Position numbers and translations under genes: made by a program. A DNA stretch of 64,000 bases from Candidatus Undinarchaeota archaeon (GTDB lineage Archaea; SpSt-1190; JASMDC01): assembly GCA_964519305.1 (NCBI GenBank), contig CAZFHY010000006.1, forward strand, positions 86,099-150,098, in the 5' to 3' direction. Position 1 is the first letter of the stretch. The number at the start of each line of letters is the position of its first letter. Of the stretch, positions 9,179 through 40,235 are shown in pieces. The notes under the pieces were generated by a model. That model ran no database searches and had not been told where the DNA came from. It was given only the letters and a program-made list of their open reading frames with translations.

Positions 9179-10933
9179 ATGGAAGGTGATCCGGTGGCAA
9201 GTAGAATCCTAACACTTTCATCTAGGAGTAACTCCGCTGGCCAGGCGGCCATGGAGTTCCTGATGAGCTACGGCTGGATGCTGGTGATCATCGTCATCGG
9301 CGGTGCCGCGATGTACTCCATGGGCATCCTCAACCCGGGCACCTACCAGAAGAAGGGCTGCGTCGGGTTCGAGAAGATCCATTACCGCGACCACCTGTTC
9401 CGCGGTACGGGCGAGGTCGGGCTGTGGACGGTGTGGTCGTCAGAGACCGAGCGCGAAAGCCAGTTCCAACTGCGTATGCAGAACGGGGCCGGGATCACCC
9501 TCCGCATCCGGGGCATCGACGTGGAGTATCCCGAGGGCGTGCACGTGACGTGGTCCGAGCGCGGCTACGACTGCGACTACTACAACACCGCTGACGACAC
9601 CGACTCGGGCTGCCAGGAGCAGAACGTGTCCGAGGGGGATCTCGCCACCCTCTCCATCGAGGACGTGGGGCGGGGGACTCTGGACCTGCGACACGGCGCC
9701 GTGTACCGCAGCAAGGTCAAGGTGACGTTCGACGCGTTCAACGCGCTGGAAGATCACTCTGAGGTGGCCATCTGCTGTGGCAAGATCGAGGGCGGCTCGA
9801 CCGCGTCCACATCGGGCGGCGGGAGCGGTTCGGGGTCCGGAACCGGTAGCGGTACGGGCTCCGGTACAGGTACTGGCAGCGGTACGGGATCCGGGACCGG
9901 GAGCGGCACCGGGGCGTCCTGGGGCCCCTGCATGGCCACGTGGGAGAAGGACGACGGATCGGACTACGAGATCATGTATGCCTCGTGGAACGGCGCGTGG
10001 AGCACCGCCGCCAAGGTGACCGACAACGCAATCTATGATAGCGCTCCTTCAATATCCTGCACCTCGTCGTCGTACTGCATGGCCGTCTGGTTCGCGTACG
10101 ACGGATCGGACTACGAAATCATGTACGCTACGTGGAACGGCGCCGCGTGGAGCGCCGCCGCCGCGGTGACCGACAACGCGGTCTCCGATACCAATCCCAT
10201 CGTGTCATGCCCGACCACGTCCTTCTGCATGGCCACGTGGAACGGGCATGACGGGGACAGCGAGATCATGTACGCTACGTGGAACGGCGCCGCGTGGAGC
10301 GCCGCTGCCAAGGTGACCGACAACGCACTCTCCGAGTCCATGTCCTCCGTGTCCTGCGCCACATCGTCGTCCTGTATGACCGCGTGGCGCGTCCTAGATG
10401 GGAATTACGAGATCAGGTCCGCCGCATGGAACGGTGCTTCTTTGAGCGATGCCGAGGTGACCGACTTCGCGTACAACGACATCCAGCCCTCCGTCTCCTG
10501 CCCCTCGGCGAGCTCCTGCATGGTCACGTGGAGCAGGCACCAGGGGTCCAGCGGCGGGGACTACGAGATCATGTCCGCTACGTGGAACGGCGCCGTATGG
10601 AGCGCTGCCGCCCTGGTGTGCGACAACTCGGACCAAGACTACGAGCCCACCGTGTCCTGCCCGACCACGTCCTTCTGCATGGCCACTTGGCACGCGTCCG
10701 GCGTCGGGATCAAGTACGCCTCTTGGAACGGCGCCTCGTGGGGCGCGGAGGCGACGGTTGTCGGATCGGGGATCAATCCCCAGGTATCATGCACGACATC
10801 GAGCTCGTGCATGGTGGTGTACTCCGTGAACGATATCAAGAGCGCTACATGGAACGGGAGCTCATGGAGCGACGCGGGGACGGTGGACACCGCCGCAGGC
10901 ACGAACTATCCGTACGTCTCGTGCGTGGGGTGA
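9179..10933 (+). CDS. archaeal pilin-like protein with class III signal peptide, Gly/Ser/Thr linker and ~8 tandem ~55-aa Trp/Cys repeats
   Basis: ORF track 9053-10933 (TTG maximal start); ...SAGQAAMEFLMSYGWMLVIIVIGGAAMY matches archaeal prepilin-like signal; repeat unit contains DYEIMYATWNGAAWSAAAKVTDNA...SC.TSS.CMA.W; start 9179 (ATG) or 9251 uncertain. Confidence 0.6.
   Translation: MEGDPVASRILTLSSRSNSAGQAAMEFLMSYGWMLVIIVIGGAAMYSMGILNPGTYQKKGCVGFEKIHYRDHLFRGTGEVGLWTVWSSETERESQFQLRMQNGAGITLRIRGIDVEYPEGVHVTWSERGYDCDYYNTADDTDSGCQEQNVSEGDLATLSIEDVGRGTLDLRHGAVYRSKVKVTFDAFNALEDHSEVAICCGKIEGGSTASTSGGGSGSGSGTGSGTGSGTGTGSGTGSGTGSGTGASWGPCMATWEKDDGSDYEIMYASWNGAWSTAAKVTDNAIYDSAPSISCTSSSYCMAVWFAYDGSDYEIMYATWNGAAWSAAAAVTDNAVSDTNPIVSCPTTSFCMATWNGHDGDSEIMYATWNGAAWSAAAKVTDNALSESMSSVSCATSSSCMTAWRVLDGNYEIRSAAWNGASLSDAEVTDFAYNDIQPSVSCPSASSCMVTWSRHQGSSGGDYEIMSATWNGAVWSAAALVCDNSDQDYEPTVSCPTTSFCMATWHASGVGIKYASWNGASWGAEATVVGSGINPQVSCTTSSSCMVVYSVNDIKSATWNGSSWSDAGTVDTAAGTNYPYVSCVG
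9790..9916 (+). repeat. low-complexity GS/GT-encoding tract (linker) inside pilin-like gene
   Basis: ggc/agc/acc/ggt codon repeats encoding GGGSGSGSGTGSGTGSGTGTGSGTGSGTGSGTG. Confidence 0.7.
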
Positions 10934-11304
10934 GCCGCGGCGGGGGCACCGTGGACGGGAGCGGGAACGTGTACTTGGTGGATACCGAGAACCACCGCAT
11001 CCAGAAGTTTACCTCGACAGGGACCTTCATCACAGAGTGGGGAGGCGGGGGCACGGGCGACGGGCAGTTCTCCACCCCACAGGGAATTGATATCGACACC
11101 TCCGGAAGGGTGTATGTCGCCGACGCGGGCAACAACCGCATTCAGGTGTTCGACACGGACGGAACCTTCATCACGAAGTGGGGGAGTTGGGGTACGGGCG
11201 ACGGGGAGTTAATCACCCCGAGCAATATGATCACGGTCGGGAGCGATACCATCTACGTCGTGGAATCGGGGAACAACCGGGTGCAGAAGTTCACCATATC
11301 GTAG
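10930..11304 (+). CDS. NHL-repeat segment (about 2.5 NHL repeats) in a different frame from the pilin-like gene; either a frameshifted C-terminal domain or a small coupled ORF starting at GTG
   Basis: Frame-1 translation GVSRGGGTVDGSGNVYLVDTENHRIQKF...GRVYVADAGNNRIQVFD...IYVVESGNNRVQKF shows NHL motifs; GTG 10930-10932 overlaps stop TGA 10931-10933 of the upstream ORF; no ATG in frame; upstream frame-1 sequence is Arg-rich nonsense. Confidence 0.4.
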   Translation: MSRGGGTVDGSGNVYLVDTENHRIQKFTSTGTFITEWGGGGTGDGQFSTPQGIDIDTSGRVYVADAGNNRIQVFDTDGTFITKWGSWGTGDGELITPSNMITVGSDTIYVVESGNNRVQKFTIS

Positions 11305-11384
11305 CGGACCGTTGTAAGTGGTGCCCCTGTCGCGTCCAGGGGGGCGGACCTACCTGACCGCTGGACGTGAGGTCATCCCGCGAC

Positions 11385-11470
11385 CGTTACACGCAAGTGT
11401 TTTAATCTGGAGTACCTAACCATCACTGTGAGGATGGGTGGACTCTTGTTGAAGTTGACACTGCACAAAA
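11385..11470. repeat. right copy of imperfect inverted repeat (inverted relative to 8768-8870)
   Basis: See left copy; lies between the end of the NHL segment and the 3' end of the convergent MBL-fold hydrolase gene. Confidence 0.6.
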
Positions 11471-11507
11471 GTTTCTGAGTACCCTTGCATCACTTCCTAC
11501 CAGAGTC

Positions 11508-12269
11508 CTAGAACTCAACCCTTTCTCCCGGTCGCAGGGTACGCACCTTGATGCCTGGCTCCCGTTCACGCGCCAACCTCTCCAGCTCCTCGGGGCGTCC
11601 CGAATGGAAGGATAAGGGCGGTAGGCTCATCCAGGCACCACCCTCGTGGATGGGGATGACTTTGCTAGCGCCAAGTTCCACTGCGGCCTGGAGGGCCTGG
11701 GCAGGGGTCATGACGATGCGGCGGCCAAGCACCCGGGAGCCGCCTATAGGGAGCATGGCCACGTCGATGGTGAAGCGCCGGCCAATATCGGTGAACCCGT
11801 GATGGTACTTCGTATCGCCGCCGAAGAACAGGCTCGTGGACCCGTCCTGGAGGACGAAGTTGATCTCGCCGTCCGGATGGTCCGCCTCGGTAGCGGTGAT
11901 GGTGACCCCTCCCTGCTCCTGGACGTCGCCCGGGACCATGTCCACGACCTCCTTCGCTCCCAGGTCGCGAGCGAAACGCGCCGTCCCCTCAGGCCCGAGG
12001 ATGGTTGTCTTGGCCAGGTCCATACGGCTTAAAGAGCGCCGGTCGAAGTGGTCCGGGTGGAGATGTGAGGCGACAATCAGGTCGATGGGTGGCAGGTCCT
12101 TGAGCTCGATACCGGGGCGCTGGTAGCAGGGCAGTCCCCGTAACTGCATGCAGAACCAGGGGTCGGTGAGGACCGTGAGCCCCTCGAACCGCAGCAGGAG
12201 CGTAGAGGTCCGGACGAATGTGACGTCCACCACGCTCCCGGGATAGGGGGCAAACGTTTTATGTCCCAT
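11508..12269 (-). CDS. MBL-fold metallo-hydrolase
   Basis: ORF track 258 aa; HxHxDH motif (SHLHPDH) and downstream His/Asp ligands; start taken at MGHKTF. Confidence 0.7.
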   Translation of the reverse strand: MGHKTFAPYPGSVVDVTFVRTSTLLLRFEGLTVLTDPWFCMQLRGLPCYQRPGIELKDLPPIDLIVASHLHPDHFDRRSLSRMDLAKTTILGPEGTARFARDLGAKEVVDMVPGDVQEQGGVTITATEADHPDGEINFVLQDGSTSLFFGGDTKYHHGFTDIGRRFTIDVAMLPIGGSRVLGRRIVMTPAQALQAAVELGASKVIPIHEGGAWMSLPPLSFHSGRPEELERLAREREPGIKVRTLRPGERVEF

Positions 12270-12777
12270 CCTCCGGCGGAGCACGCAGTGCTGCCCAGGG
12301 CCTTACGCCTCTTGAGACCATCACTGCGAATCCGCCCCATCCGACCGCTAGCAGCAGAAGCTGTGCGGCGATGAATACCTCCCGGGGGAACAGCCCCCAC
12401 GTCGACACCAGACACACGGTCTCGGAGAACGGGCGCAGGCACCGAGCATTACCTTCCCAGAGGATAGGGAGGCCTATGCCCAGATCGATAGCGGCGTGGA
12501 GCAGAACACCAGCTAGGCACACGGGCAGGACACGACGGAACCGTTGCGGGTCCCTGGCGAGCATCCACGCGACCACGGCCGCTAGCAATGGCAGAACGAT
12601 AAGGTTGCCCATCACGGTAGCATGGGTGCGTGCCAGCACGCTCCACCCGAACACCACCATCACCAGGTCTATGTCCGGTACCACGCTGGCCACGAGGAAC
12701 GCGCGGGTCCGCTCCCGGTCCAGTCCCTGTCTAGAGGCGATAAGGAGCGCGAGCATGTAATGTGTGAGCGGGTCCAT
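12259..12777 (-). CDS. membrane-bound metal-dependent hydrolase-like protein (YdjM-like)
   Basis: 172 aa, starts MDPLTHYMLALLIA, four hydrophobic helices with conserved His/Asp positions. Confidence 0.5.
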   Translation of the reverse strand: MDPLTHYMLALLIASRQGLDRERTRAFLVASVVPDIDLVMVVFGWSVLARTHATVMGNLIVLPLLAAVVAWMLARDPQRFRRVLPVCLAGVLLHAAIDLGIGLPILWEGNARCLRPFSETVCLVSTWGLFPREVFIAAQLLLLAVGWGGFAVMVSRGVRPWAALRAPPEDGT

Positions 12778-25057: not shown

Positions 25058-26056
25058 TCATGTTCCCAACCTCCCTTTTTCTTTTTTAGTTCCCCAGGGT
25101 GTGGATTCGGTCCACACCCTGCGGAACTCTTTTGTGAAGCTCGCACCCAACCGTCCGTTTCGGATAACGAGAATGTTCTCGTCGTTCCCCATTAGCCCGC
25201 TCTTGGTCGGATTCGCAGAGCCGGTCACTACAGTCTCACCATCGACGATGAAGGTCTTATGGTGCATCATACCCTTGTTCCCGTCCGCCCTGACATCAGC
25301 ACCTGCAGCCAGGACAGCAGAGCACCGTTCCCAGCGTCTGGCCTGGACGCGTTCGCATACTCCTGATACCGAGACCCCCCGATGGACGGCTCGGGACAAC
25401 GCCTCGGCCACAGCACCATCGGTGAAGGAGAATGCAAGGAACTGGACCTCCCGCTCCGCACCGTCTATCGCATCGACGATTACCTCACGGCAGCCATCGT
25501 CGGGGCAGAACGCGACCTGGAGGGAGGTCCCGCCCAGCTCCATAACAGGGGATGACGTGGACCCTCCGGTAGAGAACACACCCGCCCATAGCTCTTCGAA
25601 CTCAGCTGTATAGGCGGCCGACAGAAGTCGGGAGCGTACTTGGAGGAGAACGTTATCGTTCCGCGCTGCGCCCCTTCCTGTCGGATTGAATGACCCGGTC
25701 ACGACAAGCTGGTCATCGATGATGCAGAACTTGTTGTGCATCAGGGCACGCTCGGCATGTCCCCGTCGGACTGGGATCCCCGCCGGTACATCACCCCCGT
25801 GGACTACAACACGCGCGCGGGTCCGTCTTAGGGCGGCGATCACAGCCGGATGATCCACATCATAGAATGCACAGCTCACAGAGCTATGTGCTGAGAGGAT
25901 CGCTGCGGCCAGTAACTCCCCGCAAGGTTCATGCGGACAGAAGTGCACAAGGGGTATGGGGGCAGCCTCGTACGGGATGCTGTCGACCTGCCAGCGAGCG
26001 GCCACAGCAGCACATGTCACAAGGACGATAATCGATAGAAGAGGCCTCAGTCGCAT
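25058..26056 (-). CDS. secreted phospholipase D-family (HKD) protein
   Basis: Two HxK(x)4D motifs (HNKFCIIDD, HHKTFIVDG); start set at MRLRPLLSIIVLVTCAAVA (signal peptide); longer ORF-track extension to 26563 rejected as shadow of the divergent gene. Confidence 0.6.
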   Translation of the reverse strand: MRLRPLLSIIVLVTCAAVAARWQVDSIPYEAAPIPLVHFCPHEPCGELLAAAILSAHSSVSCAFYDVDHPAVIAALRRTRARVVVHGGDVPAGIPVRRGHAERALMHNKFCIIDDQLVVTGSFNPTGRGAARNDNVLLQVRSRLLSAAYTAEFEELWAGVFSTGGSTSSPVMELGGTSLQVAFCPDDGCREVIVDAIDGAEREVQFLAFSFTDGAVAEALSRAVHRGVSVSGVCERVQARRWERCSAVLAAGADVRADGNKGMMHHKTFIVDGETVVTGSANPTKSGLMGNDENILVIRNGRLGASFTKEFRRVWTESTPWGTKKEKGRLGT

Positions 26057-26111: not shown

Positions 26112-27635
26112 ATGCCTGAGTCCCTGGCGCCATATGTAGCACAGCTGCTACGCCAGGGGTATACGAAAGACCAGGTGCATGACACCCTCAGGGAGCAGGG
26201 ATGGGAGGATAAGGCCATCAGCGAGGCTCTAGAGCAGGCGACAGTGCTCGCTGAACAACCCGAACCGCGGCTCGCCCCCTTTCCCAAACCCATGGTCCCG
26301 CCGGCGGTAGTGGCCGGGGTCTTGGGAATAATCGTAGTGATCGTGTTCGCGTCCATGTTCATGGGCGGCTCGGAGCCAACGCCGGTGGAGCCCACGCCCA
26401 CACCACGCGCTACACCTGAGCCCACCCCTGAGCCCACGGTCGCACCTACAGCCACGCCGAAACCGGAACCGAAGGGATTGGGCGTCGACCTGGTCGGAGT
26501 GACGGTGCGTTCCAAGGACGAGACCCAGTTCCTCCACCGCGACTTCACTGTTGACGCGATCAAGCTCGTGTACGATGTCCTATCTGCGCCGAGCGCGCAG
26601 GAGCGTTACGAGTCGATCCAGAAATTCGTGGGATATTGTAAGAACAGGACCTTCCCTAATCCCGAGCTCGACCGTGAGCTCGAGGAAATGGACAAGGACA
26701 TGGAGAACTACAAGTTCTACTTGGAGACCAACAACATACCCAAGGCCACAGAGGTCCTGGAAAACGATATTTTCGGACGATTCAGCGCGAAGCGTGTCGA
26801 GGGACCATTACCCGTCACCGTCTCGCTGAGCTACGGGACCGGTCTTGTCCTCAACCTGACCTCCACGACCCAGCTCATTGGTTTGAACACGCTCTGGGAG
26901 ACATCCCATCTCATCCAACCGAACATCCCTGATGACGTGTGGACCGGGGTGTGGGACGAGGCGTGGACGAACACGTTCCCCGCGGGTGCTGAGCGCTCAT
27001 CCTTCACCGTGGACATGCTCTATCTTGACCAGACCACGCTCGAAGTGACCCCGCCGCGGTCGGCGGCGTTCAAGTATTACGGGAAGAGCGGCCTGCGATC
27101 GCTACAGGGGGATGGCTACACGATTCCGAGCTTCGAGGCCGTGCTGATCTACCAGATCGGAGGCGAGGTGTGCACCCAGACCGAGCGGACATGGTCCGGC
27201 GGGAATGTCGGACAGTGGGTTTGCCCCGAAAGGGTGAAGGAGGGTGAGTTCTTCGTCAAGAAGAACGTGACCTTTTCGTTCCTGGACCTCTCGCCAGTGC
27301 AGGGGAACCTTACGGCCGTCTATCGTACCGAGCTCAAGGCGAGCATCAGTGGCAATCCCATCGACCTCACTTTCCTGTTCCTTGAAGGGAAGGAGCCATT
27401 CTCCAAATCATCGGCCTCCGCCCTCCTCAAGGACCTGAAGCTCAATATCTATACTGCAGAGACCGAAGGGACGGCAAAATGTCCCGTCCACGTCGTCGAC
27501 GCTTACACAAATGCACCGGTCAGCTATGTAGCGGCCGTTGCTGTGGGCGAGTACATGATGGTTATGTACGCCGACGACAAGCCCAATCCAGCCTACTTCC
27601 GCAGTCTGGCCGATGCACTGTGCACAAAGGTCTAG
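26112..27635 (+). CDS. type-II membrane protein of the same N-terminal-module family, large extracellular domain
   Basis: 507 aa; N-terminus APYVAQLLRQGYTKDQVHDTLREQGWEDKAISEAL, TM helix, Pro/Thr-rich linker. Confidence 0.5.
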   Translation: MPESLAPYVAQLLRQGYTKDQVHDTLREQGWEDKAISEALEQATVLAEQPEPRLAPFPKPMVPPAVVAGVLGIIVVIVFASMFMGGSEPTPVEPTPTPRATPEPTPEPTVAPTATPKPEPKGLGVDLVGVTVRSKDETQFLHRDFTVDAIKLVYDVLSAPSAQERYESIQKFVGYCKNRTFPNPELDRELEEMDKDMENYKFYLETNNIPKATEVLENDIFGRFSAKRVEGPLPVTVSLSYGTGLVLNLTSTTQLIGLNTLWETSHLIQPNIPDDVWTGVWDEAWTNTFPAGAERSSFTVDMLYLDQTTLEVTPPRSAAFKYYGKSGLRSLQGDGYTIPSFEAVLIYQIGGEVCTQTERTWSGGNVGQWVCPERVKEGEFFVKKNVTFSFLDLSPVQGNLTAVYRTELKASISGNPIDLTFLFLEGKEPFSKSSASALLKDLKLNIYTAETEGTAKCPVHVVDAYTNAPVSYVAAVAVGEYMMVMYADDKPNPAYFRSLADALCTKV

Positions 27636-28432
27636 ACCGGTATCTGAGGGGACTCGACCAGTCGGTCGATGCCCATGCGCACCAGTTCATCATCACTGGG
27701 GAGAGCATCGTTCTTTGCGAACACGGCACATCCCTTGAGATAGAGGGGGACGCCCATGGTCGGATGGTCGAGGCGGAAGAGCGAGCCCTTACAGGATTGT
27801 GTGCAGGGGAACACTCCCCACTCCGGCCGTCCAGGGCGGGTGGAAGCGAGCCCAATCAAGCAGTACCTGCTGATGGTGACGAACACGTACGGGTGATGGA
27901 ACGAGCCGTGGAGAGGATTATCCCCCTCTCCCAGGCGAAGGGATACGCCTTGGAAGGGATTCTCCACTTCCACCCGGCGGACGCCACGTGAGGCCAGCAG
28001 GCTGCGGACCGCGGGTACGTCCATGTTGGTCGTGCGGAACCGTTCCCAGGCCTCGGGTGTGAGGGCTTCCTTTGCTTGCATGAGCCGCGGACCACGCTTC
28101 TGCTTGTGGATGATGCCGCCCACTACGGGTTCGAGCCGGCCTTCCTCAGCGATAATGTCGATAACGCCCCAATCGTTGGCGACGACCTCGGTGCCGTCAG
28201 GAAGTTCGGCAAGGAGGGATTTCAGCCGGTTAATGCCCTCCTGTGTGACGGGCGGTGTGACGAAGGTTACGGCCACATCGGCGTCATCTGCCCTCTTAAG
28301 AGCATCCGTGAGCTCAGTTCGTGTGGGCATGAGGCGCTGACAATACCCGTTCCCCAGGTAGAGCCGGTCATGCCCGGTCCAGTCGATCGTGTCCAACAAC
28401 TCAACCCTGGAGACGATGATCGCACGCTCCAT
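27632..28432 (-). CDS. peptidase U32 family protein (second of a coupled pair)
   Basis: ORF track 27632-28459; start proposed at MERAII (ATG 28432) overlapping the upstream stop (TGATG) with GGTGAGGTG SD-like motif; C-terminal Cys cluster. Confidence 0.55.
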   Translation of the reverse strand: MERAIIVSRVELLDTIDWTGHDRLYLGNGYCQRLMPTRTELTDALKRADDADVAVTFVTPPVTQEGINRLKSLLAELPDGTEVVANDWGVIDIIAEEGRLEPVVGGIIHKQKRGPRLMQAKEALTPEAWERFRTTNMDVPAVRSLLASRGVRRVEVENPFQGVSLRLGEGDNPLHGSFHHPYVFVTISRYCLIGLASTRPGRPEWGVFPCTQSCKGSLFRLDHPTMGVPLYLKGCAVFAKNDALPSDDELVRMGIDRLVESPQIPV

Positions 28433-29529
28433 CACCTCACCACCTCGGGCCAGTAGCATTCAGCGGCCGAGCAGTTCCAGCCATAAAGATCCCTGTACAG
28501 GGTCCGGCATCTTTCCATGTATGCAGTATTATCCTCCGAACCCTCGAGCTCCTCCAGTGCACGGCGCACGAGGATGATGTCGTCCACCTTCTTGCTCGTG
28601 GGATGGATCCGACCCTGTATCTTTACGACGGTGACACCCGCGTCGCGCATCAAGCCCAGTCCGCAGATGCCGCATCCGCTACCGCCCCAGTTGGGTGCCC
28701 ATTGCAGGCCGAACCGTTCCTGAACGGCCACGGCCAGCTCATCGCTACCCTCCAGGGCTTCGACCTGGACCGCCGAGGAATTTAGACAGAGATGGCTGGA
28801 GGCGACCCGCGCGATCGGTCCAGCGTACTGGACGGTCTTCGGGATATGTCGCATGGCTCGTACCAGATGCGCCCGCATGCTTCCCAGACGAGGACTGAGG
28901 AGGGCGAACATCCCCCTGGTAGTGCTCTTGTGCCGGGCCTCAGTGAGACCGTGGAAGTACGTGCACAGCCCCTCCACATGGGGGCAACGGGCGTTGAGCA
29001 CGAATCCCTCGAGGGTGATGTCGGGAGCCGCTTGGGCTATGTCGGCGATCTCCTTGATAGAGAGGTGATGGGGGAGGATCACACGTGAGGCGCCGAGACG
29101 TTGGTAGAACCGGGCGGCTTGGGCATTGAACACCGCGTTGATGGTGCTGACGTGGATGTCGATACCCACATCGTTGTCATGGAGGTGGGACATTAGGCCA
29201 AGATCGGCAACAATGAGGGCGTCAGCCTCAGCAGCGATGGCCTCATCGACCTCCTCGATTAGATAGGTGAACTGGGCTGCGGAGTAGAAGTCCTGGTTAT
29301 AGGCGACGTTCACGCGTACGCCGAGGTCATGGGCGATCGTCAGGGCCTTACGCAGTTCGTCATAGGATGGCATGGAAGAGCGAGTGTACATCTCGCGGCT
29401 GACACCCCCCATGTGGGTGTAGCGCTTGCGCCACCGGTCGGAGAGAACTGCACAGTACAGTTCAGTAGCTCCCGCACGGACGATGGGTTCCACCTCATCG
29501 GCCCGGTTGATGGGAGCGAGAATATCCAT
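28432..29529 (-). CDS. peptidase U32 family protein
   Basis: 365 aa; N-terminus MDILAPINRADEVEPIVRAGATELYCAV typical of U32, C-terminal Cys motif (CGICG...CSAAECYWPE). Confidence 0.7.
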   Translation of the reverse strand: MDILAPINRADEVEPIVRAGATELYCAVLSDRWRKRYTHMGGVSREMYTRSSMPSYDELRKALTIAHDLGVRVNVAYNQDFYSAAQFTYLIEEVDEAIAAEADALIVADLGLMSHLHDNDVGIDIHVSTINAVFNAQAARFYQRLGASRVILPHHLSIKEIADIAQAAPDITLEGFVLNARCPHVEGLCTYFHGLTEARHKSTTRGMFALLSPRLGSMRAHLVRAMRHIPKTVQYAGPIARVASSHLCLNSSAVQVEALEGSDELAVAVQERFGLQWAPNWGGSGCGICGLGLMRDAGVTVVKIQGRIHPTSKKVDDIILVRRALEELEGSEDNTAYMERCRTLYRDLYGWNCSAAECYWPEVVR

Positions 29530-29600: not shown

Positions 29601-31415
29601 ATGAACGTGCACCCCTTGATTGGAATGGAGCCCGTGCTCTCGGTAGATGATCACTTCGGTGTGCTGGAACGACTGGAGGCCATGGCCTTCGAGCCATCCG
29701 AGTGGCATGACCTCAACCTCGCTGCTCACGGGCTCTCGCTGACGGGTCAGTTCGAGCGTGCTGCCATCGTAGAGCGTGTCAAGCAGAAGATACGCATCCT
29801 CCCGCACCAGATCGAGACTGCGCTGCGTGTGCTCAACGACCTTGGCCATCGCGCGTTATTGGCCGATGAGGTAGGGCTGGGCAAGACCGTGGAAGCGGGT
29901 ATCGTGCTCAAGGAGTACCTGGTCCGTGGCCTTGTGGACCGCGTGCTCATCCTCACACCTGCTCCCTTGGTCCGTCAGTGGCAGGGAGAGCTTGAAGAGA
30001 AGTTCGGTGAAGGGTTCATCACCCCTCTTGACGATGGGTTCCGTGGGTTCGAGAAGGAGGACCGTCTCATCTGCTCCATGGACAGGGCCCGCCAGCCCAA
30101 GAACGCACCCTTTGTCCAAGCCCGTCCATGGGACCTCCTTATTGTGGACGAGGCCCACCGGCTGCGCAACGTTGAGACGAAGCTCCACCAGTTCGTGGCC
30201 GGGATCGACGCTCGTTACCTGCTCATGCTAACCGCGACCCCCATCCAGAACAACCTCTTCGAGCTGTTCAACCTCATAGACCTCCTCAAACCGGGTCATC
30301 TGGGTACGCGGAACCAGTTCGGTGTCTATTTCGTAGGGGACCGTAAGGCTCAGACGCTCGAGAACGAGGGGGAGCTGCGCGAGCTTCTGGGCCAGGTCAT
30401 GGTGCGCAACCGTCGCGCCGATGTAGGGCTCCAGCTCCCAGACCGCCATGTCCACGACATCATGCTTGATCCTTCTCCCCAGGAGGCCGAACTGTACCGT
30501 CGGGTCATCGGCTATATCGCTGACCAGTACGACGAGGCCGACGACGGTGGGGAGTTCGACGCCGCTGAGGCCCGTGGGACGACACGTGGTATCGACCTTC
30601 TGAGGCTCATGACGCTCGAGCGTGAGCTCGTGTCATCCAGTCAAGCTCTGGCCGCTACCCTGCGCAAGATAATCCCACGAGAGCCCGATCCCGAGAAGCG
30701 CGTGCTTCTGGACGAGCTGTACGAGCTTTGCCTGTCGGCCCGGGACAGCACCAAGGCCCGCAATCTCCTGGAGCTCGCTCAGCGCTTGGACACTTCCCTC
30801 ATCGTGTTCACGCAGTTCATCTCCACCCAGGAGCATCTGCGGGAACGTCTGGATGCCGCAGGCCTGTCGCCCGTGGTGTTCAACGGCAGCATGTCACCCT
30901 CCGAAAAGGAGTTCGCTATCCAGGGTTTCAAGGAGCGGGGCGGTGTGCTCCTGTGCACTGACTCGGGGAGCGAGGGCCGGAACCTCCAGTTCGCCAACGT
31001 GCTGGTGAACTACGACCTTCCCTGGAATCCCATGCGCCTGGAGCAGCGTATCGGCCGGATCCACCGCATCGGCCAAGAGCGGGACGTCCACGTGTTCAAC
31101 CTAACGCTCGCGGGCACGATCGAGGACCACATACTCACGACGCTCTATCGCAAGATCGACCTCGTCACCGCGGCTGTGGGCGATATGGACCTGATCCTTT
31201 CCAAGCTGCCCGATGGCGTATCCTTCGAGCGCCGACTGTTCGAGCTGTCGTTGCGCATCAAGGACAAGCGTTCCTTCGACGATGGGATGAAAGAGTTCGC
31301 CGATGAGATGGCGGAGGCCAAGGAGCTGGCAGCCAAGGTGCATCAGCTGGATGCCCGTGTGCTCGAGCGCTTCGACCTATCGTCACTGGAGAATGCGGGG
31401 GTGCGAATCGAGTGA
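29601..31415 (+). CDS. SNF2-family helicase/ATPase (compact, RapA-like)
   Basis: 604 aa; motif I LADEVGLGKTVEAG, motif II LLIVDEAH, motif III LTATPIQNN, helicase-C motifs DSGSEGRNLQ and QRIGRIHRIGQ. Confidence 0.75.
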   Translation: MNVHPLIGMEPVLSVDDHFGVLERLEAMAFEPSEWHDLNLAAHGLSLTGQFERAAIVERVKQKIRILPHQIETALRVLNDLGHRALLADEVGLGKTVEAGIVLKEYLVRGLVDRVLILTPAPLVRQWQGELEEKFGEGFITPLDDGFRGFEKEDRLICSMDRARQPKNAPFVQARPWDLLIVDEAHRLRNVETKLHQFVAGIDARYLLMLTATPIQNNLFELFNLIDLLKPGHLGTRNQFGVYFVGDRKAQTLENEGELRELLGQVMVRNRRADVGLQLPDRHVHDIMLDPSPQEAELYRRVIGYIADQYDEADDGGEFDAAEARGTTRGIDLLRLMTLERELVSSSQALAATLRKIIPREPDPEKRVLLDELYELCLSARDSTKARNLLELAQRLDTSLIVFTQFISTQEHLRERLDAAGLSPVVFNGSMSPSEKEFAIQGFKERGGVLLCTDSGSEGRNLQFANVLVNYDLPWNPMRLEQRIGRIHRIGQERDVHVFNLTLAGTIEDHILTTLYRKIDLVTAAVGDMDLILSKLPDGVSFERRLFELSLRIKDKRSFDDGMKEFADEMAEAKELAAKVHQLDARVLERFDLSSLENAGVRIE

Positions 31416-32494
31416 GCAACGATCTCGATAGCTTCCTTACTGCCTACAGGCGAGTGGCCGGACTCTCTCCCGGGGAGGCTGACAAGGATGTGGGAGTGGC
31501 CGATGCCATCTCTGCTGCTAAGGGTAGAGGATTGGTGGCCGTTAAGAGGCTGGTCGAGCCTCCTGGCATGAGCAAAGATCCTTTCGGAGATGTGAAGCTA
31601 ACTCACTGTCGCACGGTCCATCGCTCGACCCGCCGGAGCAGCCGGAACTTCGCACTCTGCTTCTCTTTCCGGGTAGGGATCCGCACGGCCAGTCTTCGGG
31701 AAGCGGTGTACCATGTAGCAGTGGACATGGCCACGATGGAACCGCTGGCCGGGTTCACAGGCTTTGCCGGACTGCACTACGAGAACGTCGACTACCGTCC
31801 CCGTCTTTCACATGAGCTGATCCAGCGTGCTTTCGCAAGGGCGCAGGCGGAGCTCGGTCGTCGGATGCGTCCTATGCAGGAAGAAGAACTGGCGCGCTTG
31901 ACCGTCCAGCACCGGACCGCGGCTACCAGGGTGAAGGCCTACTTCCATCAGCTCCAGAAGGAGGTGCTCGAGGCAGAGCGCCGTGTCCAGCAGCGCATCG
32001 ATTCCACTAGTGCAATGATGGCCTCTGCCACCACGCGAGAACTGAAGGAGAAGCGTCAGAAACGGCTGGTCCAGCTCGAGGCCGAACTGGAGAAGGTGCG
32101 GGACCGGAACGACTTCACACTCCTTGACTACCGGAAGCGCATGGAGGGCGAGCTCACGAAGGAGGAGGGCCGGTGCGGTCTGGACACCGACGTGACCATC
32201 ACCTCCGCCGTGGTCCTGGAGTACGACACATCGGTGGAAACCTACCTTCTCGTTGGCCGGCATGCACACGCAGAGCTGGAGCGTGCACGTTCGCCCTTCG
32301 CAAAGCCAGATACGCTACAGTGTGCCTGCTGTGGCCAAGAGGCGGTAACACTGGCACTCGATGCAGCAGGACATCTGGTATGCCCCTCCTGTGCCCGGGT
32401 CTGTACGTTGTGCGGTTCCGTGCGCAGTGAACTGTGCTCACAGGGCCGTCCCTCGAAGCTCCTTACCCAGCCCTGTACGCGATGCGGGCTGTGA
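31412..32494 (+). CDS. hypothetical coiled-coil protein with C-terminal zinc ribbons, coupled to SNF2 helicase
   Basis: 360 aa; GTG start overlaps helicase stop (GTGA); central charged helical region; C-terminal CACCG...CPSC...CTLCG...CTRCG. Confidence 0.5.
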   Translation: MSNDLDSFLTAYRRVAGLSPGEADKDVGVADAISAAKGRGLVAVKRLVEPPGMSKDPFGDVKLTHCRTVHRSTRRSSRNFALCFSFRVGIRTASLREAVYHVAVDMATMEPLAGFTGFAGLHYENVDYRPRLSHELIQRAFARAQAELGRRMRPMQEEELARLTVQHRTAATRVKAYFHQLQKEVLEAERRVQQRIDSTSAMMASATTRELKEKRQKRLVQLEAELEKVRDRNDFTLLDYRKRMEGELTKEEGRCGLDTDVTITSAVVLEYDTSVETYLLVGRHAHAELERARSPFAKPDTLQCACCGQEAVTLALDAAGHLVCPSCARVCTLCGSVRSELCSQGRPSKLLTQPCTRCGL

Positions 32495-32558
32495 GTGGGA
32501 CCCGGTCAATCCCGCGGGTGGCGGTTTTAAATAACAACGGCCGTAACTCTGACCGTCC

Positions 32559-33916: not shown

Positions 33917-34633
33917 TTATCCGATGGTCACGGTCAGCTCTTCTTGTTTGATGTGCCGATAGTTGCCGCCAGTGTCCGAGGTGCACTGAGCTGGCTCGCA
34001 GAATGCGCATTCTTCACTCATGTAAAGGCACACATCGACGGCGAACGTCCTGGTTCCCACTGTTGTGTTGGCCGGGACCGTGAGCTTAATGTTGCTGAAC
34101 CCGATCTTGTGACTCTTCGCCGCGATAGTGCGCTTGCCAGAGAACCAATCCTGTCCTGAGAATGTATCCTCCTCCTTCGGGTGCAGGTTGATACAGAAGC
34201 ATCGCGGGTCCAGATCGTCGTTCTTGACGGCCACATAGAGGGAGCGCGGGGTGGAGTTGGAGGCGGCGATTTCGAAAGAGGAGGTCTCTAATGCCATCAG
34301 TTCGCTCGACATCTTCAGTTTGTCCTCGAGGCGGTCCCGTCGCTCAGCATCAGCACGGGCTTCCGGATCTAGGTTCGCATCAGTCTCGAACTGGGCACCT
34401 GTGATCCACTTCATGAAGGGCGGTATGAGCACTGTGACCATGATGAGGAAGATGATGGCAATGAGCGTTTTGATGATGCGTGGCGGCATCTCCGTCTCAT
34501 CGCCCGAGAGGGCCTTCGCCACCTCGGCGGAGCCGACACCCTTTTTGAGCAGCGCCCTGCGGATCTCGGGTTTTGTATGTCCACGCTCCTCGAGCGTACG
34601 GATCCAATCCCGGAGCTCTTCCTGCGACGGCAT
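33917..34633 (-). CDS. type-II membrane protein of the same N-terminal-module family
   Basis: 238 aa; N-terminus EELRDWIRTLEERGHTKPEIRRALLKKGVGSAEVAKAL, TM helix, Cys-containing ectodomain. Confidence 0.5.
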   Translation of the reverse strand: MPSQEELRDWIRTLEERGHTKPEIRRALLKKGVGSAEVAKALSGDETEMPPRIIKTLIAIIFLIMVTVLIPPFMKWITGAQFETDANLDPEARADAERRDRLEDKLKMSSELMALETSSFEIAASNSTPRSLYVAVKNDDLDPRCFCINLHPKEEDTFSGQDWFSGKRTIAAKSHKIGFSNIKLTVPANTTVGTRTFAVDVCLYMSEECAFCEPAQCTSDTGGNYRHIKQEELTVTIG

Positions 34634-35461: not shown

Positions 35462-37306
35462 CTAACGGAACACCCCCATGACCTTGTCAAGTAGACCTTT
35501 CTTCGCTTCGGGGCGCAGGGTCTTGACCAGCTTGGCCACAGTCTTGAGGTCCGTCCGCCTGAAGTGCTTCTGCGTTATGAACTCCTCCTTCACCCGACCG
35601 TCGGCCTCGACGTTATCATTGATGAATGGCTTGGGATCGACGACCGACACCCTTGGGGGGGAGAGGGGGTAGTTCTGTGAGAGGCGGACCTCGTAGTGCA
35701 CCTTCTTGAGCTGGGCGCCATAGAGCGCCTTGTACTCTCCGCTCCAGAGGTAGATGTTATTTGCTAGCGGTTTGAACGTGGTGACCATGTCGGACACGAG
35801 GATGTTCCCGATCTCCTCAAAGAACTCCTCGGAGCTTGTGATCTCGAACTTACGCACCCTCAGACGCTCCTTAACGATCTCCAATGCCTCACAAAGGCTC
35901 ATCTCGCCCTCCCATTCCAGGCCAGAACCGGGGTGTCCGAAGAGAACGAGCCCTGTGGGGGAATGAATGGCGCCGAAGAGGAGGATCCTCTCGGTCACAT
36001 CGAGCCGGGAGTCGAACTTGATCATTGGGGGTGTCTGCGGGAAGTACGGGTCCACCAGGACCACGGCCTCGTAGGTGCGGCCGGTCAGCACTCCTTCACC
36101 ATTGATGGTCACGGCCCAGCCTCCCAGGACCTCCCTGTTCAGGTCCTGTGCGTACTTTCCCACCTCATTGTCGGGGATCTGTGTGATGGATGGCTCGTAC
36201 TTCTCGAGGTAGCCCGCCTCATAGGATAGACGGGTCGTCGGGTCCATGGAGACAAGGTCCGTGCGCTTTAGGGCCCGGATGTCCTCAAGGACCTCCGCGA
36301 TATGGGTGTCCTCGGTCCATGCTGAGGTGAGGAGGGGGATAACTACTGAGCCCCCCACATCGATATGATCATTAGGGAACACGTTCCGAAGGGACACGCG
36401 GGGGGGTACCCGGGGGAATTCCTTGGGTACATCCACGACAATGTCGAGCGTGATGCCCTGATGGGTCGTCACTGGCCCCTCCCATCGCTCCACGTTGCCC
36501 TTCACGGGACGCAGCTGGCTCTTGCGCAGTAGCTGATAGGTCTCCAGGTACAACCGCGGCACCTCGCGGTGGACCCGCTCGATGCGACGACGTAGGGCGT
36601 CCAGTACACCGCTCAGGTCAGGGTCCTTGTTCCATTGGTAAGTGGCCAGGTTCTCGAGCTTGGCATACCCTTCCTCGTCAGTGAGCCGTGGATGGACAAG
36701 CCCTACCCGTACGGAGGGGGGGCTTTTTGGATACCCCTGAGGGAGGGTCACTATAACGATCTCGCTCTCCATACGTCCCTTGAACGTGTTCTTGCCGGAC
36801 TCCTGGAATCCCTGCTTGAGCAGCAGGCGACGGTCCTTCCCAGCCTCGACACGTTCCCCGATATCGTCCAGGCGTGTGTAGATGAACTCACCCGGAGGGA
36901 TCTGTTCCTCGAACGAGTAACTGTCCAGTGTGAATCGCGCCGGTGAGCGTGGATAGGCGGGAGGTAGTAGCACCTCCATTCGCTTCCCCTTGTGCTTTCC
37001 TGTTAGCGCGATCCCGCCGGTGTCCTCCTTGTGCGAGAAACCTTCCTCATGCAGAAAGGATACTTCGAGCGTCTTCTTGATCTCGCCATCGAGGAACTGG
37101 GCGAGCGGAAGACCGTCGGGGATTGGGACCTTCCGGTTCACTCCTCCCCCGGAGATGCTCGCGTTCTTGGCACCCTCCACCTGTAGCTTCACCTGGACCA
37201 TCTTGCCGTAGAACTCACCACGGAGGTCGTAGATTGAGTCACCTACGAAAGAGAACCCGCTCCCACGGAGCTGATGAATCTCGCGGAGGATACGCGGGTC
37301 GGGCAT
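35462..37306 (-). CDS. protein with about five tandem UBC/UEV-like (E2-variant/RWD-like) domains
   Basis: ORF track 35462-37699 (N-terminal extension overlaps upstream gene; start proposed at MPMPDP, ATG 37306). Five repeats with W..(I/V).G...YP..PP.(V/I).F motif; repeat 3 has FPNDHIDVGGSVVIPLL, matching HPN-region topology but no Cys at the catalytic position. Confidence 0.5.
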   Translation of the reverse strand: MPDPRILREIHQLRGSGFSFVGDSIYDLRGEFYGKMVQVKLQVEGAKNASISGGGVNRKVPIPDGLPLAQFLDGEIKKTLEVSFLHEEGFSHKEDTGGIALTGKHKGKRMEVLLPPAYPRSPARFTLDSYSFEEQIPPGEFIYTRLDDIGERVEAGKDRRLLLKQGFQESGKNTFKGRMESEIVIVTLPQGYPKSPPSVRVGLVHPRLTDEEGYAKLENLATYQWNKDPDLSGVLDALRRRIERVHREVPRLYLETYQLLRKSQLRPVKGNVERWEGPVTTHQGITLDIVVDVPKEFPRVPPRVSLRNVFPNDHIDVGGSVVIPLLTSAWTEDTHIAEVLEDIRALKRTDLVSMDPTTRLSYEAGYLEKYEPSITQIPDNEVGKYAQDLNREVLGGWAVTINGEGVLTGRTYEAVVLVDPYFPQTPPMIKFDSRLDVTERILLFGAIHSPTGLVLFGHPGSGLEWEGEMSLCEALEIVKERLRVRKFEITSSEEFFEEIGNILVSDMVTTFKPLANNIYLWSGEYKALYGAQLKKVHYEVRLSQNYPLSPPRVSVVDPKPFINDNVEADGRVKEEFITQKHFRRTDLKTVAKLVKTLRPEAKKGLLDKVMGVFR

Positions 37307-37355
37307 GGGCACGTGGAGGTGCGCAAGATTAATAACGGTAGCGTCGACGGTCGGC

Positions 37356-40235
37356 TCAAGCCGGGATGCACTGTCGAGGTAATACCCATGCTCCGGGGTT
37401 TCTTGCGAAGTACACGGCCCGAGTCGCGTTGTGCTCGAACAGTACACCACTACGTTCGGTGATGACAGAGACCGTGAGCTCTTCCCATCCATCCAATGCC
37501 TTATCGCAGAACCTGAACGGCTCAAAGTGGACGAGATAGCCGCCGGGGGCCGATGTGACGTACAGCGACTCGCGAACGGACCCGTCCAGATATGCCCGCA
37601 CTGTCCGGGCAGCAGGGATGATGTCGCGGCCTGCCACGGATACCAGAACGTCCATGTCGAAGCCCCATGCCTGGAGCACCTGGTAGATTGGCTCCTCACG
37701 GGAGCCCGGTCGTACCTCCTCGATGGTCAGGCGTGTCTCTCCGGGCGCTACTAGCGTGATATGGTCGGTGCCGCTTCCAGTGCGGCCCAGACGTGCAACG
37801 CTGACGTCCACGGTGGCGCGGCCGGCGCTCAGGGATCCGGAGACCACGAGCGTCAGCACCCACTGACGCAGAGCGGGCACGTAGCGCATAGAGAAGACCC
37901 TCGATTCCGTACCCCGGATGGACGTTCGCAAGTCATCGCGTGTAAGGGTCGTGACGGGACTCCCGTCCCGGGTATCCACTACGGAGACGTAGGCATGAAG
38001 GAATATGCCATGTCGTGCTTCCTCGAGCGGGACCGTCCGGGGTTCTATGGACCGGACTGTGACCTCGTAGCCGGGGCTCAAAGGACCGTACCAGAGGGGG
38101 ACGGAGGAACGTGCCGCTCCCATCTCGCCGTCGTGGTCCAGTGTTAGGAACAGCGGGATGGACCCTGGCGTGAGCGTACCTGCAAGGTGGGGTGGGAGCC
38201 GGGCACGGACCCGCCAGACCTCATCACGCCACGCCAACTCTATGTTCTCCGTAGGTAACGGGAGGTCACCCACGACCAGTGTGATCGAGTCTGCTGAGAG
38301 CCCACTGGAGACCGGGCCACCCTGCAGACGCACAGAGAGATCAAGGCTGACGATCACTTCACCAGTGGCAAGGGCGTCCATGTCCAATGCTTCTGGTCGG
38401 ATGTCCTCCACCCGGACCGAGAGCCCCTCCGGCGAGCAGCCGTCCTCGCGACACATCTCGCCCGGACCGCAGACGTGACCGAACGAGGCCGCCTCGTCCG
38501 TGCAGAGGCAATGGGAGGGGCACAGCTCCCACGGGAGGATGGCCGGGATCCGTTGGAGCCCGATCCGCGCCACACGTTCGCCGTCCTCCTCCGCAACGAC
38601 GAAGGGTGGTTCATCCCCGCCGCCGGCGCATCCGACGGCCGTGCACTGCTGGCCGTGCTCGCACACGTCAACCAACCGGCCGTCCTCGGTGAAACACGCG
38701 CACACAGGGTGTCGGTCGGAAGCGGGTACACACTGTCCGCCTGGGCCCATGCAGCGAAGGATGATGTCCCCCGTGCCCAGCGATCCGTCACGGCACAGAC
38801 GATCGTAATCGGTGCCTCTAAGGCCGGTCGGCACCCATTGCTCGACCTCGAGCGGGACGGTGTGAACGCCCGATTCGGAGCCACGGAACGCGGTGAGACG
38901 GAGTTGGTAATGGCCGGGTGGGACCGTTTCGGGGAGGGTGAAGTCGATCTTTCCACAGGGGTATGTACGACGGACGAGGATGCGCGCCTCTGTCCCAGTG
39001 TAGTTGATCAGCGCCACCTCGCAACGCTCACCTGGCGTGTCGATCCACATGCGGACGTCCTCGCCCACCATGTACGATGGCTGCTCGAGCGTGACCGGTA
39101 GGGGCACGGACCTCCCGGGCTTAAGGAAGTGGACGATGGTGTTGGCCGTGGCCGAGAGCCCCAGAGGATTGAACATGGTGACACGCACCACGTACTCCCC
39201 CTCTTCGGACTCTGTCGAGAGCGTGAGCGGGACATAGAGGCAGGAGGGGAGACCGTACTGGGCGTCAATGACATTACCCTCGTGCAGCAGTTCGACGGAA
39301 CAGGCAGATATGCCGGCCCCGGCGAAGGCGCCCACGACCATCGTCTCGCCGAGGAGGAACGTGTCCGTCACACGGCCGGCACCGTCACCTACTACAAGTG
39401 TAACAGGGAAGAGGCGCGGCCTGACGAGCACCTCAGCAGTGGCGTTGATCAGGACATTGAAACCCTTGTACTTGACCAGCGAGTGTATGATGACGGGCGT
39501 GGCAGGGCACTGGCCACCTTCGTACTCCTCGCACCCCATCCCCGCAGGATCGAGCTCGAGAAGGGCGGAGTCACAGGTGAAGCATGCGCGGGGCCGTCCG
39601 AGGGATTGACCATCGATGGAGAACGCACCCCATACGATGAACTCCACCTCGTCGCTGAATGAGAATGTTACGATGTCCCCTGCATAGTACTGGTCGAGGT
39701 CGGTGACCAGCGGGGCGTTGGTGATACAGTCCTCGGTCCCGTCCCGACACTGGAGGGGGAACTCCAGGCCCACTCGCTCCTTGCGTGTGATGTGGCTGGT
39801 CGCCAATCCTGTCGTAGGGAGGGTATAGGTGACGGTGCGTTCGCCGACCTCCTCTGCCTCGTCCACGAGTATGAACCCGCGGGGTGTGTAAGAGAACTTG
39901 AGGGTGGGTCGCAGCTCCTCGAGCGAATACGAGCGTGCCACAGTGAGCAGGGGCTCAACGGTGGTGAACCGTAGCGTGACAGAGTCACCGGTCACGTCGT
40001 AGGTGCACGCGCGAGTGTGCGCGGGTGCGAGCTGGGCACAGGCGCGGTCGAGCACGCCCGGTTTGAGGAGAGTGTCCATCAGTCCATCACCCACACCGTC
40101 GAGGGTCACGGTGATGTGGTTGATGGGAGAGCGTGATACATCGACCTCCTCTAGGATGGTATCCACGACCACAGCTGTCGCGGGAGCGACCACTAGGAGC
40201 AAGGCCAGGAGGATGGCGCTCCTCATGCAGCGCAC
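37356..40235 (-). CDS. large secreted Cys-rich surface protein
   Basis: 959 aa; Sec-type signal peptide (MRCMRSAILLALLLVVAPATA), multiple Cys-rich segments. Confidence 0.55.
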   Translation of the reverse strand: MRCMRSAILLALLLVVAPATAVVVDTILEEVDVSRSPINHITVTLDGVGDGLMDTLLKPGVLDRACAQLAPAHTRACTYDVTGDSVTLRFTTVEPLLTVARSYSLEELRPTLKFSYTPRGFILVDEAEEVGERTVTYTLPTTGLATSHITRKERVGLEFPLQCRDGTEDCITNAPLVTDLDQYYAGDIVTFSFSDEVEFIVWGAFSIDGQSLGRPRACFTCDSALLELDPAGMGCEEYEGGQCPATPVIIHSLVKYKGFNVLINATAEVLVRPRLFPVTLVVGDGAGRVTDTFLLGETMVVGAFAGAGISACSVELLHEGNVIDAQYGLPSCLYVPLTLSTESEEGEYVVRVTMFNPLGLSATANTIVHFLKPGRSVPLPVTLEQPSYMVGEDVRMWIDTPGERCEVALINYTGTEARILVRRTYPCGKIDFTLPETVPPGHYQLRLTAFRGSESGVHTVPLEVEQWVPTGLRGTDYDRLCRDGSLGTGDIILRCMGPGGQCVPASDRHPVCACFTEDGRLVDVCEHGQQCTAVGCAGGGDEPPFVVAEEDGERVARIGLQRIPAILPWELCPSHCLCTDEAASFGHVCGPGEMCREDGCSPEGLSVRVEDIRPEALDMDALATGEVIVSLDLSVRLQGGPVSSGLSADSITLVVGDLPLPTENIELAWRDEVWRVRARLPPHLAGTLTPGSIPLFLTLDHDGEMGAARSSVPLWYGPLSPGYEVTVRSIEPRTVPLEEARHGIFLHAYVSVVDTRDGSPVTTLTRDDLRTSIRGTESRVFSMRYVPALRQWVLTLVVSGSLSAGRATVDVSVARLGRTGSGTDHITLVAPGETRLTIEEVRPGSREEPIYQVLQAWGFDMDVLVSVAGRDIIPAARTVRAYLDGSVRESLYVTSAPGGYLVHFEPFRFCDKALDGWEELTVSVITERSGVLFEHNATRAVYFARNPGAWVLPRQCIPA

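Follow-up and report, generated by a model that had tools for sequence, protein, structure and literature searches.

The stretch of DNA analysed here, referred to below as the window, comprises 64,000 nucleotides from a Candidatus Undinarchaeota archaeon (contig CAZFHY010000006.1, positions 86,099 to 150,098) and carries on its forward strand a pair of overlapping genes for a compact SNF2 ATPase and a smaller partner protein with a cysteine-rich tail. According to the open reading frame (ORF) listing of the window, the helicase ORF starts with ATG and runs from 29601 to 31415, encoding 604 amino acids (aa), and the partner ORF starts with GTG and runs from 31412 to 32494, encoding 360 aa. The junction reads ...ATCGAGTGAGC..., where a GTGA at 31412..31415 serves both genes: the partner GTG at 31412 shares four bases with the end of the helicase gene, the TGA of which occupies positions 31413-31415, and the partner is read in the -1 frame relative to the helicase. 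Inside the helicase-coding region, 8 nt 5′ of the partner GTG, lies the sequence GGGGGTG (31397..31403), which resembles a Shine-Dalgarno (SD) site and may function as one.

Both ORFs are real genes under purifying selection and not chance ORFs of GC-rich DNA. This is indicated by a comparison with the relative L001, which is 88-94% identical and recurs in several independent assemblies. The ratio of nonsynonymous to synonymous substitution rates (dN/dS) was low for the helicase (0.11) as well as for the partner (0.17), amounting to ~0.2 for the cysteine-rich tail of the partner alone, and both the GTGA overlap and the SD-like motif were kept in L001 despite nearby synonymous changes. In favour of the GTG start, the N-terminal helix of the partner (SNDLDSFLTAYRRVAG) lines up with the N-terminal ends of remote members of its family. 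An earlier description of this locus, made by a model from the letters and their ORFs alone (the sequence-only reading), had reported an SNF2 ATPase of 604 aa with all core helicase motifs, overlapping at GTGA with a 360-aa partner that has a charged helical core and four CxxC pairs. The ORF listing and the junction sequence matched this description exactly; motifs I, II, III and VI proved to be intact, the CxxC pairs start at aa 304, 324, 331 and 355, and the helical core appears as a hairpin in the AlphaFold model.

Membership of the larger protein in the SNF2 family (PF00176 and PF00271) is clear, since both ATPase lobes exceeded the Pfam gathering scores and the motifs are intact. SNF2-rel_dom matched at aa 82-304 (E=3e-34; 118.8 bits against a cut-off of 24.9) and Helicase_C at aa 387-491 (E=5.5e-21; 75.3 bits against 23.5). 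The Walker A sequence or motif I, GLGKT (aa 92-96; 29874..29888), is invariant in the helicase alignment, and motif II, DEAH (aa 183-186; 30147..30158), and motif VI, QRIGRIHRIGQ (aa 482-492; 31044..31076), were identified from the sequence and the same alignment; motif III is represented by TATP at aa 211. By sequence, the closest solved relatives of the ATPase core were RapA (E=5e-43) and then SsoRad54 (E=1.5e-36). Helicase homologues at ~45% identity fell into two length classes of ~580-600 aa and ~900-945 aa, the longer class stemming mostly from Thermoplasmatota. The helicases next-nearest to the window's own lineage belong to Thermoplasmatota and Sericytochromatia, and the cluster of helicases that are at least 90% identical has members from TARA mesopelagic samples and includes one that NCBI labels 'Candidatus Undinarchaeales archaeon' (a metagenome-assembled genome). 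The helicases of Bacillaceae and Paenibacillaceae that are followed by a gene for a Pfam YqhG protein showed ~40-43% identity. On these sequence relationships, the window helicase is to be placed in the orthologous group of Bacillus YqhH (HepA), as the counterpart of that protein.

The partner was modelled by AlphaFold with a predicted local distance difference test score (pLDDT) of 84.7. In the model, an N-terminal helix and β-sheet are followed by a helical hairpin (134-204/209-254), closing β-strands and the cysteine-rich tail. The N-terminal α/β module (aa 1-132; 31412..31807) is shorter than in other family members, as judged from the model and the alignment. The long antiparallel hairpin (aa 134-254; 31811..32173), which was modelled with a pLDDT of about 90-97 and contains the family motif R..YY..L..E, has ~120 residues and is charged, with 27 K+R and 21 D+E. 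After a β segment (aa 258-293; 32183..32290), the alignment and the sequence delineate a core ribbon, C304xxC307...C324xxC327 (32321..32392), and a second unit, C331xxC334...C355xxC358 (32402..32485), which is present in some lineages only. The four cysteines of the first ribbon are invariant or nearly so among the family members with such a tail, and both ribbons are predicted to bind zinc. The tail is a lineage-specific trait of the family: it occurs in partners from Desulfobacterota, Planctomycetota, Acidobacteriota, Bradyrhizobium, Halorientalis and the lineage of the window, and is absent from those of Bacillota, cyanobacteria and Nitrosopumilus. A helical hairpin with a C-terminal zinc ribbon is also the layout of CT398 and HP0958, although proteins of this type showed no sequence or fold homology with the partner beyond the coiled coil. 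In concept, eukaryotic HELLS-CDCA7 is an analogue of the helicase-partner pair.

Profile searches of the partner, as the sequence-only reading had proposed, were at first sight uninformative. Direct scans yielded no match to Pfam, NCBIfam or PADLOC models, and at E≤10 Pfam returned noise-level zinc-ribbon matches only and no match to YqhG. A word-index homologue search retrieved the partner itself and one 88%-identical relative, and its repetition with the family alignment added unnamed hypothetical proteins only. By contrast, when 1.84 billion representatives were searched exhaustively with HMMER, distant stand-alone relatives of 380-470 aa emerged that have its layout and its Cys-rich tail; one of these starts 5 nt 3′ of a 580-aa SNF2 gene. 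We then surveyed the surroundings of the nearest helicase relatives at 80 genome loci, which belong to Bacillaceae, Paenibacillaceae, cyanobacteria, Desulfobacterota, Planctomycetota, Acidobacteriota, Gemmatimonadota, Bradyrhizobium, Halorientalis and Nitrosopumilus, with a partner hidden Markov model (HMM) built from window-derived seeds alone. Before any iteration, 31 of the 80 loci already gave a match, in each case to the same-strand ORF immediately 3′ of the helicase. After one iteration, an adjoining same-strand partner was found in all but four loci, that is in 76 of the 79 testable ones, as one of the four partnerless contigs stops right after the helicase gene. The other three loci (L042 from Caldilineaceae, L076 from Planctomycetaceae and L086 from Myxococcales) carry an orthologous helicase with no partner detected downstream; loss or relocation of the partner, or its divergence past detection, may account for this.

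Drift of the iterated profile was guarded against by hhalign comparisons between independently assembled groups and by Pfam confirmation of the Bacillus members. The partners of Bacillus and Paenibacillus are bona fide members of Pfam YqhG (PF11079), with E values of 3e-126 and 1e-54. The window-like seeds aligned with the bacterial zinc-ribbon forms at a probability of 100% (E=9e-42), and the latter aligned in turn with the YqhG proteins of Bacillaceae at 98.9% (E=3.5e-17, 244 columns) and of Paenibacillaceae at 99.4%. Directly, the window-like seeds reached 94.3% with Paenibacillaceae YqhG and only 40% with Bacillaceae YqhG. Since these transitive links are strong while a direct Pfam match is lacking, the profile comparisons identify the partner as a remote member of the YqhG superfamily, outside the Pfam family as currently delimited.

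The close spacing of the two genes is a family-wide trait. In 48 of the 76 loci the partner overlaps the helicase stop codon, the offset of -4 seen in the window being the commonest (18 loci), and both counts are upper bounds because the choice of start codon favours small gaps. In 20 more loci the partner begins within 25 nt of the helicase stop. Two cyanobacterial loci (L032 and L050) are the only ones in which the genes lie about 0.8-1.1 kb apart, and in two Gemmatimonadales loci (L053 and L035) the partner ORF is far longer, at about 550-750 aa, which suggests extra domains. Among the distant loci, no neighbour of the pair in the window co-occurred with it, and only the pair itself was conserved. 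A census of 146 flanking genes in 73 loci gave a housekeeping context that was stable within lineages, comprising GcvT (15), ribonucleotide reductase (6), shikimate kinase (6) and SinI (4). This is in agreement with the suggestion of the sequence-only reading that the two genes may be a self-contained module for the targeting or remodelling of nucleic acids, and the module is built around a nucleic-acid motor.

On these findings, the pair is the archaeal form, equipped with zinc ribbons, of a two-gene unit that is very widespread but has hardly been studied, and that is represented by YqhH (HepA) and YqhG of Bacillus. Like the window pair, the unit of Bacillus subtilis consists of a compact SNF2 protein of ~560-600 aa without an N-terminal accessory domain and a same-strand YqhG-superfamily gene directly 3′ of it, usually with overlapping stop and start codons. 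Unlike YqhG of Bacillota, the window partner has a shortened N-terminal module and two C-terminal C4 ribbons, and unlike the Bacillus unit the window pair has an archaeal host. We know of no established mechanism for either YqhH or YqhG of Bacillus. The B. subtilis YqhH protein, named HepA or RapA, is described as a poorly characterised Swi2/Snf2 translocase grouped with enzymes that interact with RNA polymerase (RNAP); its deletion is viable and lowers survival of methyl methanesulfonate (MMS) under PcrA depletion (PMC7385302). For YqhH of Bacillus thuringiensis, ATPase activity and a reported unwinding activity have been described, and the knockout is UV-sensitive (PMC10054049). B. subtilis yqhG is listed as 'unknown', and a transposon insertion in it resulted in less release of extracellular DNA (PMC3487849). 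PF11079 is mentioned in no searchable paper, and we found no description in the literature of YqhG as a partner or detached domain of an SNF2 motor. Papers on 'yqhG/yqhH' of Escherichia coli and Staphylococcus aureus were set aside as a name collision, since they concern an unrelated DUF3828 lipoprotein family.

The relation between the two chains became apparent from the long helicase homologues. The window helicase ends with ...DLSSLENAGVRIE* (...VRIE) exactly where the long forms run on with ...DLSTAKDDVKIEDSVNLELEV... (...VKIEDSVNLE...), and the partner family has its homologue in the C-terminal ~310 aa of the SNF2 proteins of 900-945 aa (hhalign 98%, E=1.7e-13, 273 columns). In an AlphaFold model of one such fused protein (P0012; pLDDT 78.3), residues 614-898 repeat the order of elements of the partner model. 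The only low-confidence stretch between its ATPase and its C-terminal domain, residues 607-610 with pLDDT<50, coincides exactly with the split point in the window, so that the GTGA overlap lies at a domain boundary. The Thermoplasmatota proteins of ~900-945 aa (P0012 and P0053, annotated as 'SNF2-related protein') are 44-46% identical to the window helicase in their helicase part and differ from the window pair in being a single chain with a longer N-terminal leader and no Cys-rich tail. They are the same enzyme as the window pair in one chain. Since such a natural fusion is strong evidence for joint action, we conclude that the two window proteins probably function as one enzyme. Besides being without the Cys tail, the fused forms did not appear in the exhaustive HMMER search seeded with the window partner, which places the window pair nearer to the stand-alone forms than to a recently broken fusion. 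These results also revise the statement of the sequence-only reading that the helicase has no large accessory domains: the motor looks compact because its accessory domain sits on a separate, YqhG-type chain.

The full-length fused form also revealed the resemblance to E. coli RapA (HepA), an RNAP-recycling Swi2/Snf2 ATPase, which was its best full-length structural match. When the fused model was used as a Foldseek query, the top ranks went to RapA structures, which aligned over 962-985 columns (E=1.8e-33 to 7.8e-29) with a TMq of up to 0.59 for RapA on a post-termination complex (8t0l), whereas all other SNF2 proteins aligned over ~470-720 columns with a TMq of ~0.35. At the profile level, the partner alignment matched RapA 709-789 weakly among the PDB sequences (E=0.26 database-wide), and the profile of the bacterial zinc-ribbon forms matched E. 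coli RapA, as the sole pre-specified target, with E=6.4e-7. The latter match consists of two co-linear segments, RapA 709-789 and 858-923, the first of which corresponds to the profile positions of the N-terminal α/β module of the partner. Profiles of other partner sub-families matched the same region, RapA 858-935. Some reservations apply to the kinship with RapA: hhalign probabilities between the partner family and RapA were low (16-20%), the isolated partner model did not retrieve RapA in the structure search, and the Foldseek alignments with RapA were given without residue ranges. On balance, the YqhG-like domain is probably homologous to the Spacer and C-terminal region of RapA, which the partner would here provide in trans.

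The two enzymes nevertheless differ in several respects. E. coli RapA is a single chain of 968 aa with an N-terminal domain, while the window enzyme consists of two chains without it. The absence of the RapA N-terminal domain (residues 1-109) from the window helicase was apparent from profile and sequence alignments: the alignment with the NCBIfam RapA profile (NF003426) begins at profile position 113, corresponding to helicase residue 23, and RapA residue 150 corresponds to helicase residue 62, the helicase core beginning at ~aa 60. The score against this profile was 193.4 bits, below the equivalog cut-off of 576. Conversely, RapA is without zinc ribbons, and we saw no sign in it of the ~70-residue helical hairpin. 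In RapA, the N-terminal domain grips RNAP's β′ zinc-binding domain and is essential for the disruption of post-termination complexes, and the Spacer wedges into the opened cleft (bioRxiv 10.1101/2024.09.28.614012; PMC8666675). Since the N-terminal domain is missing, the window enzyme is RapA-like in its architecture and not a RapA orthologue.

We consider it likely that the helicase and its partner together make up one RapA/HepA-like SNF2 translocase in two chains, an archaeal representative, with zinc ribbons, of the ancient YqhH-YqhG module. In such an enzyme, the 604-aa chain would be an ATP-driven double-stranded-DNA motor that translocates on duplex DNA, and the 360-aa chain a detachable accessory domain composed of the α/β module, a helical hairpin of ~100 Å and two C4 zinc ribbons. 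The stop/start overlap and the internal SD-like site could couple translation in such a way that both chains are made together. The partner would then dock, probably on the C-terminal helices of the motor as in the fused relatives, and engage the target in the manner of the Spacer and C-terminal domains of RapA, with the α/β module placed like the Spacer and the zinc ribbons carried on the long hairpin towards the substrate. The likeliest substrate would be a stalled or post-termination RNAP, or another DNA-bound obstacle in transcription or repair. In place of the absent N-terminal domain of RapA, it is most likely the zinc-ribbon tail, at the end of the hairpin, that would take hold of a protein-DNA substrate. 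A bolder version of this idea, which we put forward tentatively and hold to be doubtful, is that YqhH-YqhG-type pairs are two-subunit functional analogues of RapA that in archaea clear the post-termination or stalled archaeal RNAP, with the zinc-ribbon-tipped coiled-coil subunit gripping the polymerase clamp in place of the N-terminal domain.

The main rival to a RapA-like translocase, which we regard as unlikely, is a DNA repair or recombination translocase of the Rad54 type without any link to RNAP, which would remodel DNA or recombinase filaments while its zinc ribbons bind damaged or branched DNA. The UV sensitivity of the B. thuringiensis yqhH knockout and the lowered MMS survival of the B. 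subtilis hepA deletion under PcrA depletion would fit such a function, but a factor clearing stalled RNAP should produce them just as well. Likewise, the ATPase core has a close solved relative in SsoRad54, and the RNAP-gripping N-terminal domain that is essential to RapA is absent; the fused model, however, aligned over its full length with RapA only, and the profile matches fell in the post-ATPase region of RapA. The tail bears a faint resemblance to the zinc finger with which MutM/Fpg binds DNA (E=0.009). Repair genes were not recurrent beside the pair in the flank census. As for the integrity of the locus, a frameshift or assembly error could have split a fused SNF2 gene, leaving a pseudogene or a case of programmed -1 frameshifting. 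Relatives in Thermoplasmatota do have one continuous ORF across the split point, and the partner does lie in the -1 frame. However, the 88-94%-identical lineage and numerous independent assemblies show the same split with the same GTGA and SD-like motif, purifying selection acts on either half, two separate genes are the usual state in bacteria and archaea alike, and the window partner is nearer to the stand-alone zinc-ribbon forms than to the fused ones. On the grounds of conservation and dN/dS, a broken gene is effectively refuted.

The sequence-only reading had suggested a role in defence, in which the SNF2 motor would scan foreign phage or plasmid DNA and the zinc-ribbon partner would act as a sensor or effector adaptor. 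This was not supported by our analysis, and we deem it improbable. The helicase did match the PADLOC models of the SNF2 proteins BrxHI, DrmD, HmaA, DpdE and ZorD (E=1e-78 to 1e-26), but these matches reflect the generic core only, and every curated NCBIfam cut-off was missed widely: the helicase scored 244-249 bits for DrmD (cut-offs 610 and 950), 227 bits for DpdE (cut-off 500) and 100 bits for ZorD (cut-off 1500). The defence proteins DrmD, BrxHI, DpdE, ZorD and HmaA share the RapA-like SNF2 ATPase core with the window helicase and differ in being larger (870-1300 aa), with other accessory regions and with obligatory partner genes that are absent here. No PADLOC model matched the partner, the module encodes no effector, and the window flanks contained neither DrmA, DrmB (DUF1998) or a methylase nor the BREX, Dpd, Zorya or Hma companions (PglX/BrxC, DpdA-K, ZorA-C, HmaB/C). 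A PLD-domain gene 3.5 kb upstream matches the DrmC and DpdK models and was the only match to DISARM among ten flanking genes. Its product, however, is a PLD protein of generic type that has two domains and a hydrophobic N-terminus, is encoded on the opposite strand, three genes away, and is never found with the pair elsewhere; we therefore rejected it as a DISARM DrmC, and together with the DrmD scores this places the pair outside DISARM. An Mrr-like nuclease resembling the ZorD nuclease domain follows the pair on a Halocatena plasmid, and HmaC adjoins it in one locus, which we likewise rejected as a system link because it is a single convergent neighbour in one of about 73 loci. The PADLOC matches among the 146 flanking genes were scattered singletons, HmaC being the one strong match, and the context in Bacillaceae and Paenibacillaceae is a stable housekeeping one (gcvT, sinI, ribonucleotide reductase). 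Close homologues of the helicase were absent from the phage collection, and only one was found in the plasmid collection. As evidence against its own suggestion, the sequence-only reading had named a partner from a housekeeping family and a pair universally conserved beside core genes. Our results largely conform to this description, with a partner from the YqhG superfamily, a pair present in many phyla and a gcvT flank in Bacillaceae.

Two loci from this comparison are of interest in their own right. The plasmid homologue belongs to a haloarchaeal Halocatena replicon with a metG gene (L087; plasmid NZ_CP096023.1 of Halocatena salina, 4973-9501). The gene order there is SNF2-related protein, YqhG-like 'hypothetical protein' of 676 aa and, behind these, an Mrr-like restriction endonuclease of 138 aa that matches the ZorD nuclease domain (E=1.4e-18). 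This arrangement may represent an isolated, lineage-specific co-option. In a metagenome-assembled genome of Syntrophobacteraceae (L067), the pair adjoins a convergent gene for a full-length HmaC/DUF499 AAA+ ATPase (9029-12340, - strand; PADLOC E=0).

RapA is usually treated as a single-chain proteobacterial enzyme and is, to our knowledge, the only prokaryotic SNF2 motor of which the mechanism is understood. Our analysis indicates that a far more widespread relative exists as a two-gene unit in many bacterial phyla and several archaeal lineages, the second chain of which is the uncharacterised YqhG family or, outside Bacillota, unnamed 'hypothetical proteins', and would correspond to the post-ATPase domains of RapA. 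For the YqhG family this offers a concrete role that can be tested, namely that of a subunit obligatory to the YqhH/HepA motor, and a candidate RNAP- or obstacle-clearing factor is pointed to in archaea. Should the pair indeed clear archaeal RNAP, archaea would have their first RNAP-recycling factor of the SNF2 type, and a function would be assigned to the YqhG (PF11079) superfamily across bacteria. For genome annotation, our findings imply that isolated RapA-like SNF2 genes should not be called defence genes on PADLOC or DrmD-type core matches alone.

The remaining features of the neighbourhood are briefly described here. Rfam detected no RNA family in the window. Directly behind the pair, the palindrome CCCGCGGG is followed by TTTTAAATAA (32511..32534, + strand), 25-34 nt 5′ of the ATG of the next gene, and possibly marks the end of the operon and a separate promoter of this downstream glycosyltransferase gene, as far as the sequence can tell. 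Divergent from the helicase, the region 27632-29529 (- strand) encodes a U32-family protein of 365 aa (weak NCBIfam matches to UbiU and TrhP), which overlaps by 28 nt a 275-aa ORF without any family match, an organisation reminiscent of U32 enzymes with two subunits, such as UbiU/UbiV. The PLD-family protein mentioned above (25058-26056, - strand) contains PLDc_2 twice behind a hydrophobic N-terminal segment and matched PADLOC DrmC/DpdK with E=5e-19. On the other side of the pair, a 638-aa protein (35462-37378, - strand) has at least four ubiquitin-E2-like repeats, with UQ_con matching in four stretches (E=1.2e-22) in addition to UEV (E=3.5e-9), RWD (E=3.7e-8) and a weak Prok-E2_B match. Such a tandem E2/UEV-like array is unusual for an archaeal genome and is conserved in the close relatives L001-L004. 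Finally, two otherwise unannotated membrane proteins (26112-27635, + strand, and 33917-34633, - strand) resemble each other in a cytoplasmic motif at the N-terminus (MPESLAPYVAQLLRQGYTKDQVHDTLREQGW... and MPSQEELRDWIRTLEERGHTKPEIRRALLKKGV...), behind which lies a transmembrane segment, and they may represent a paralogous family that flanks the module.

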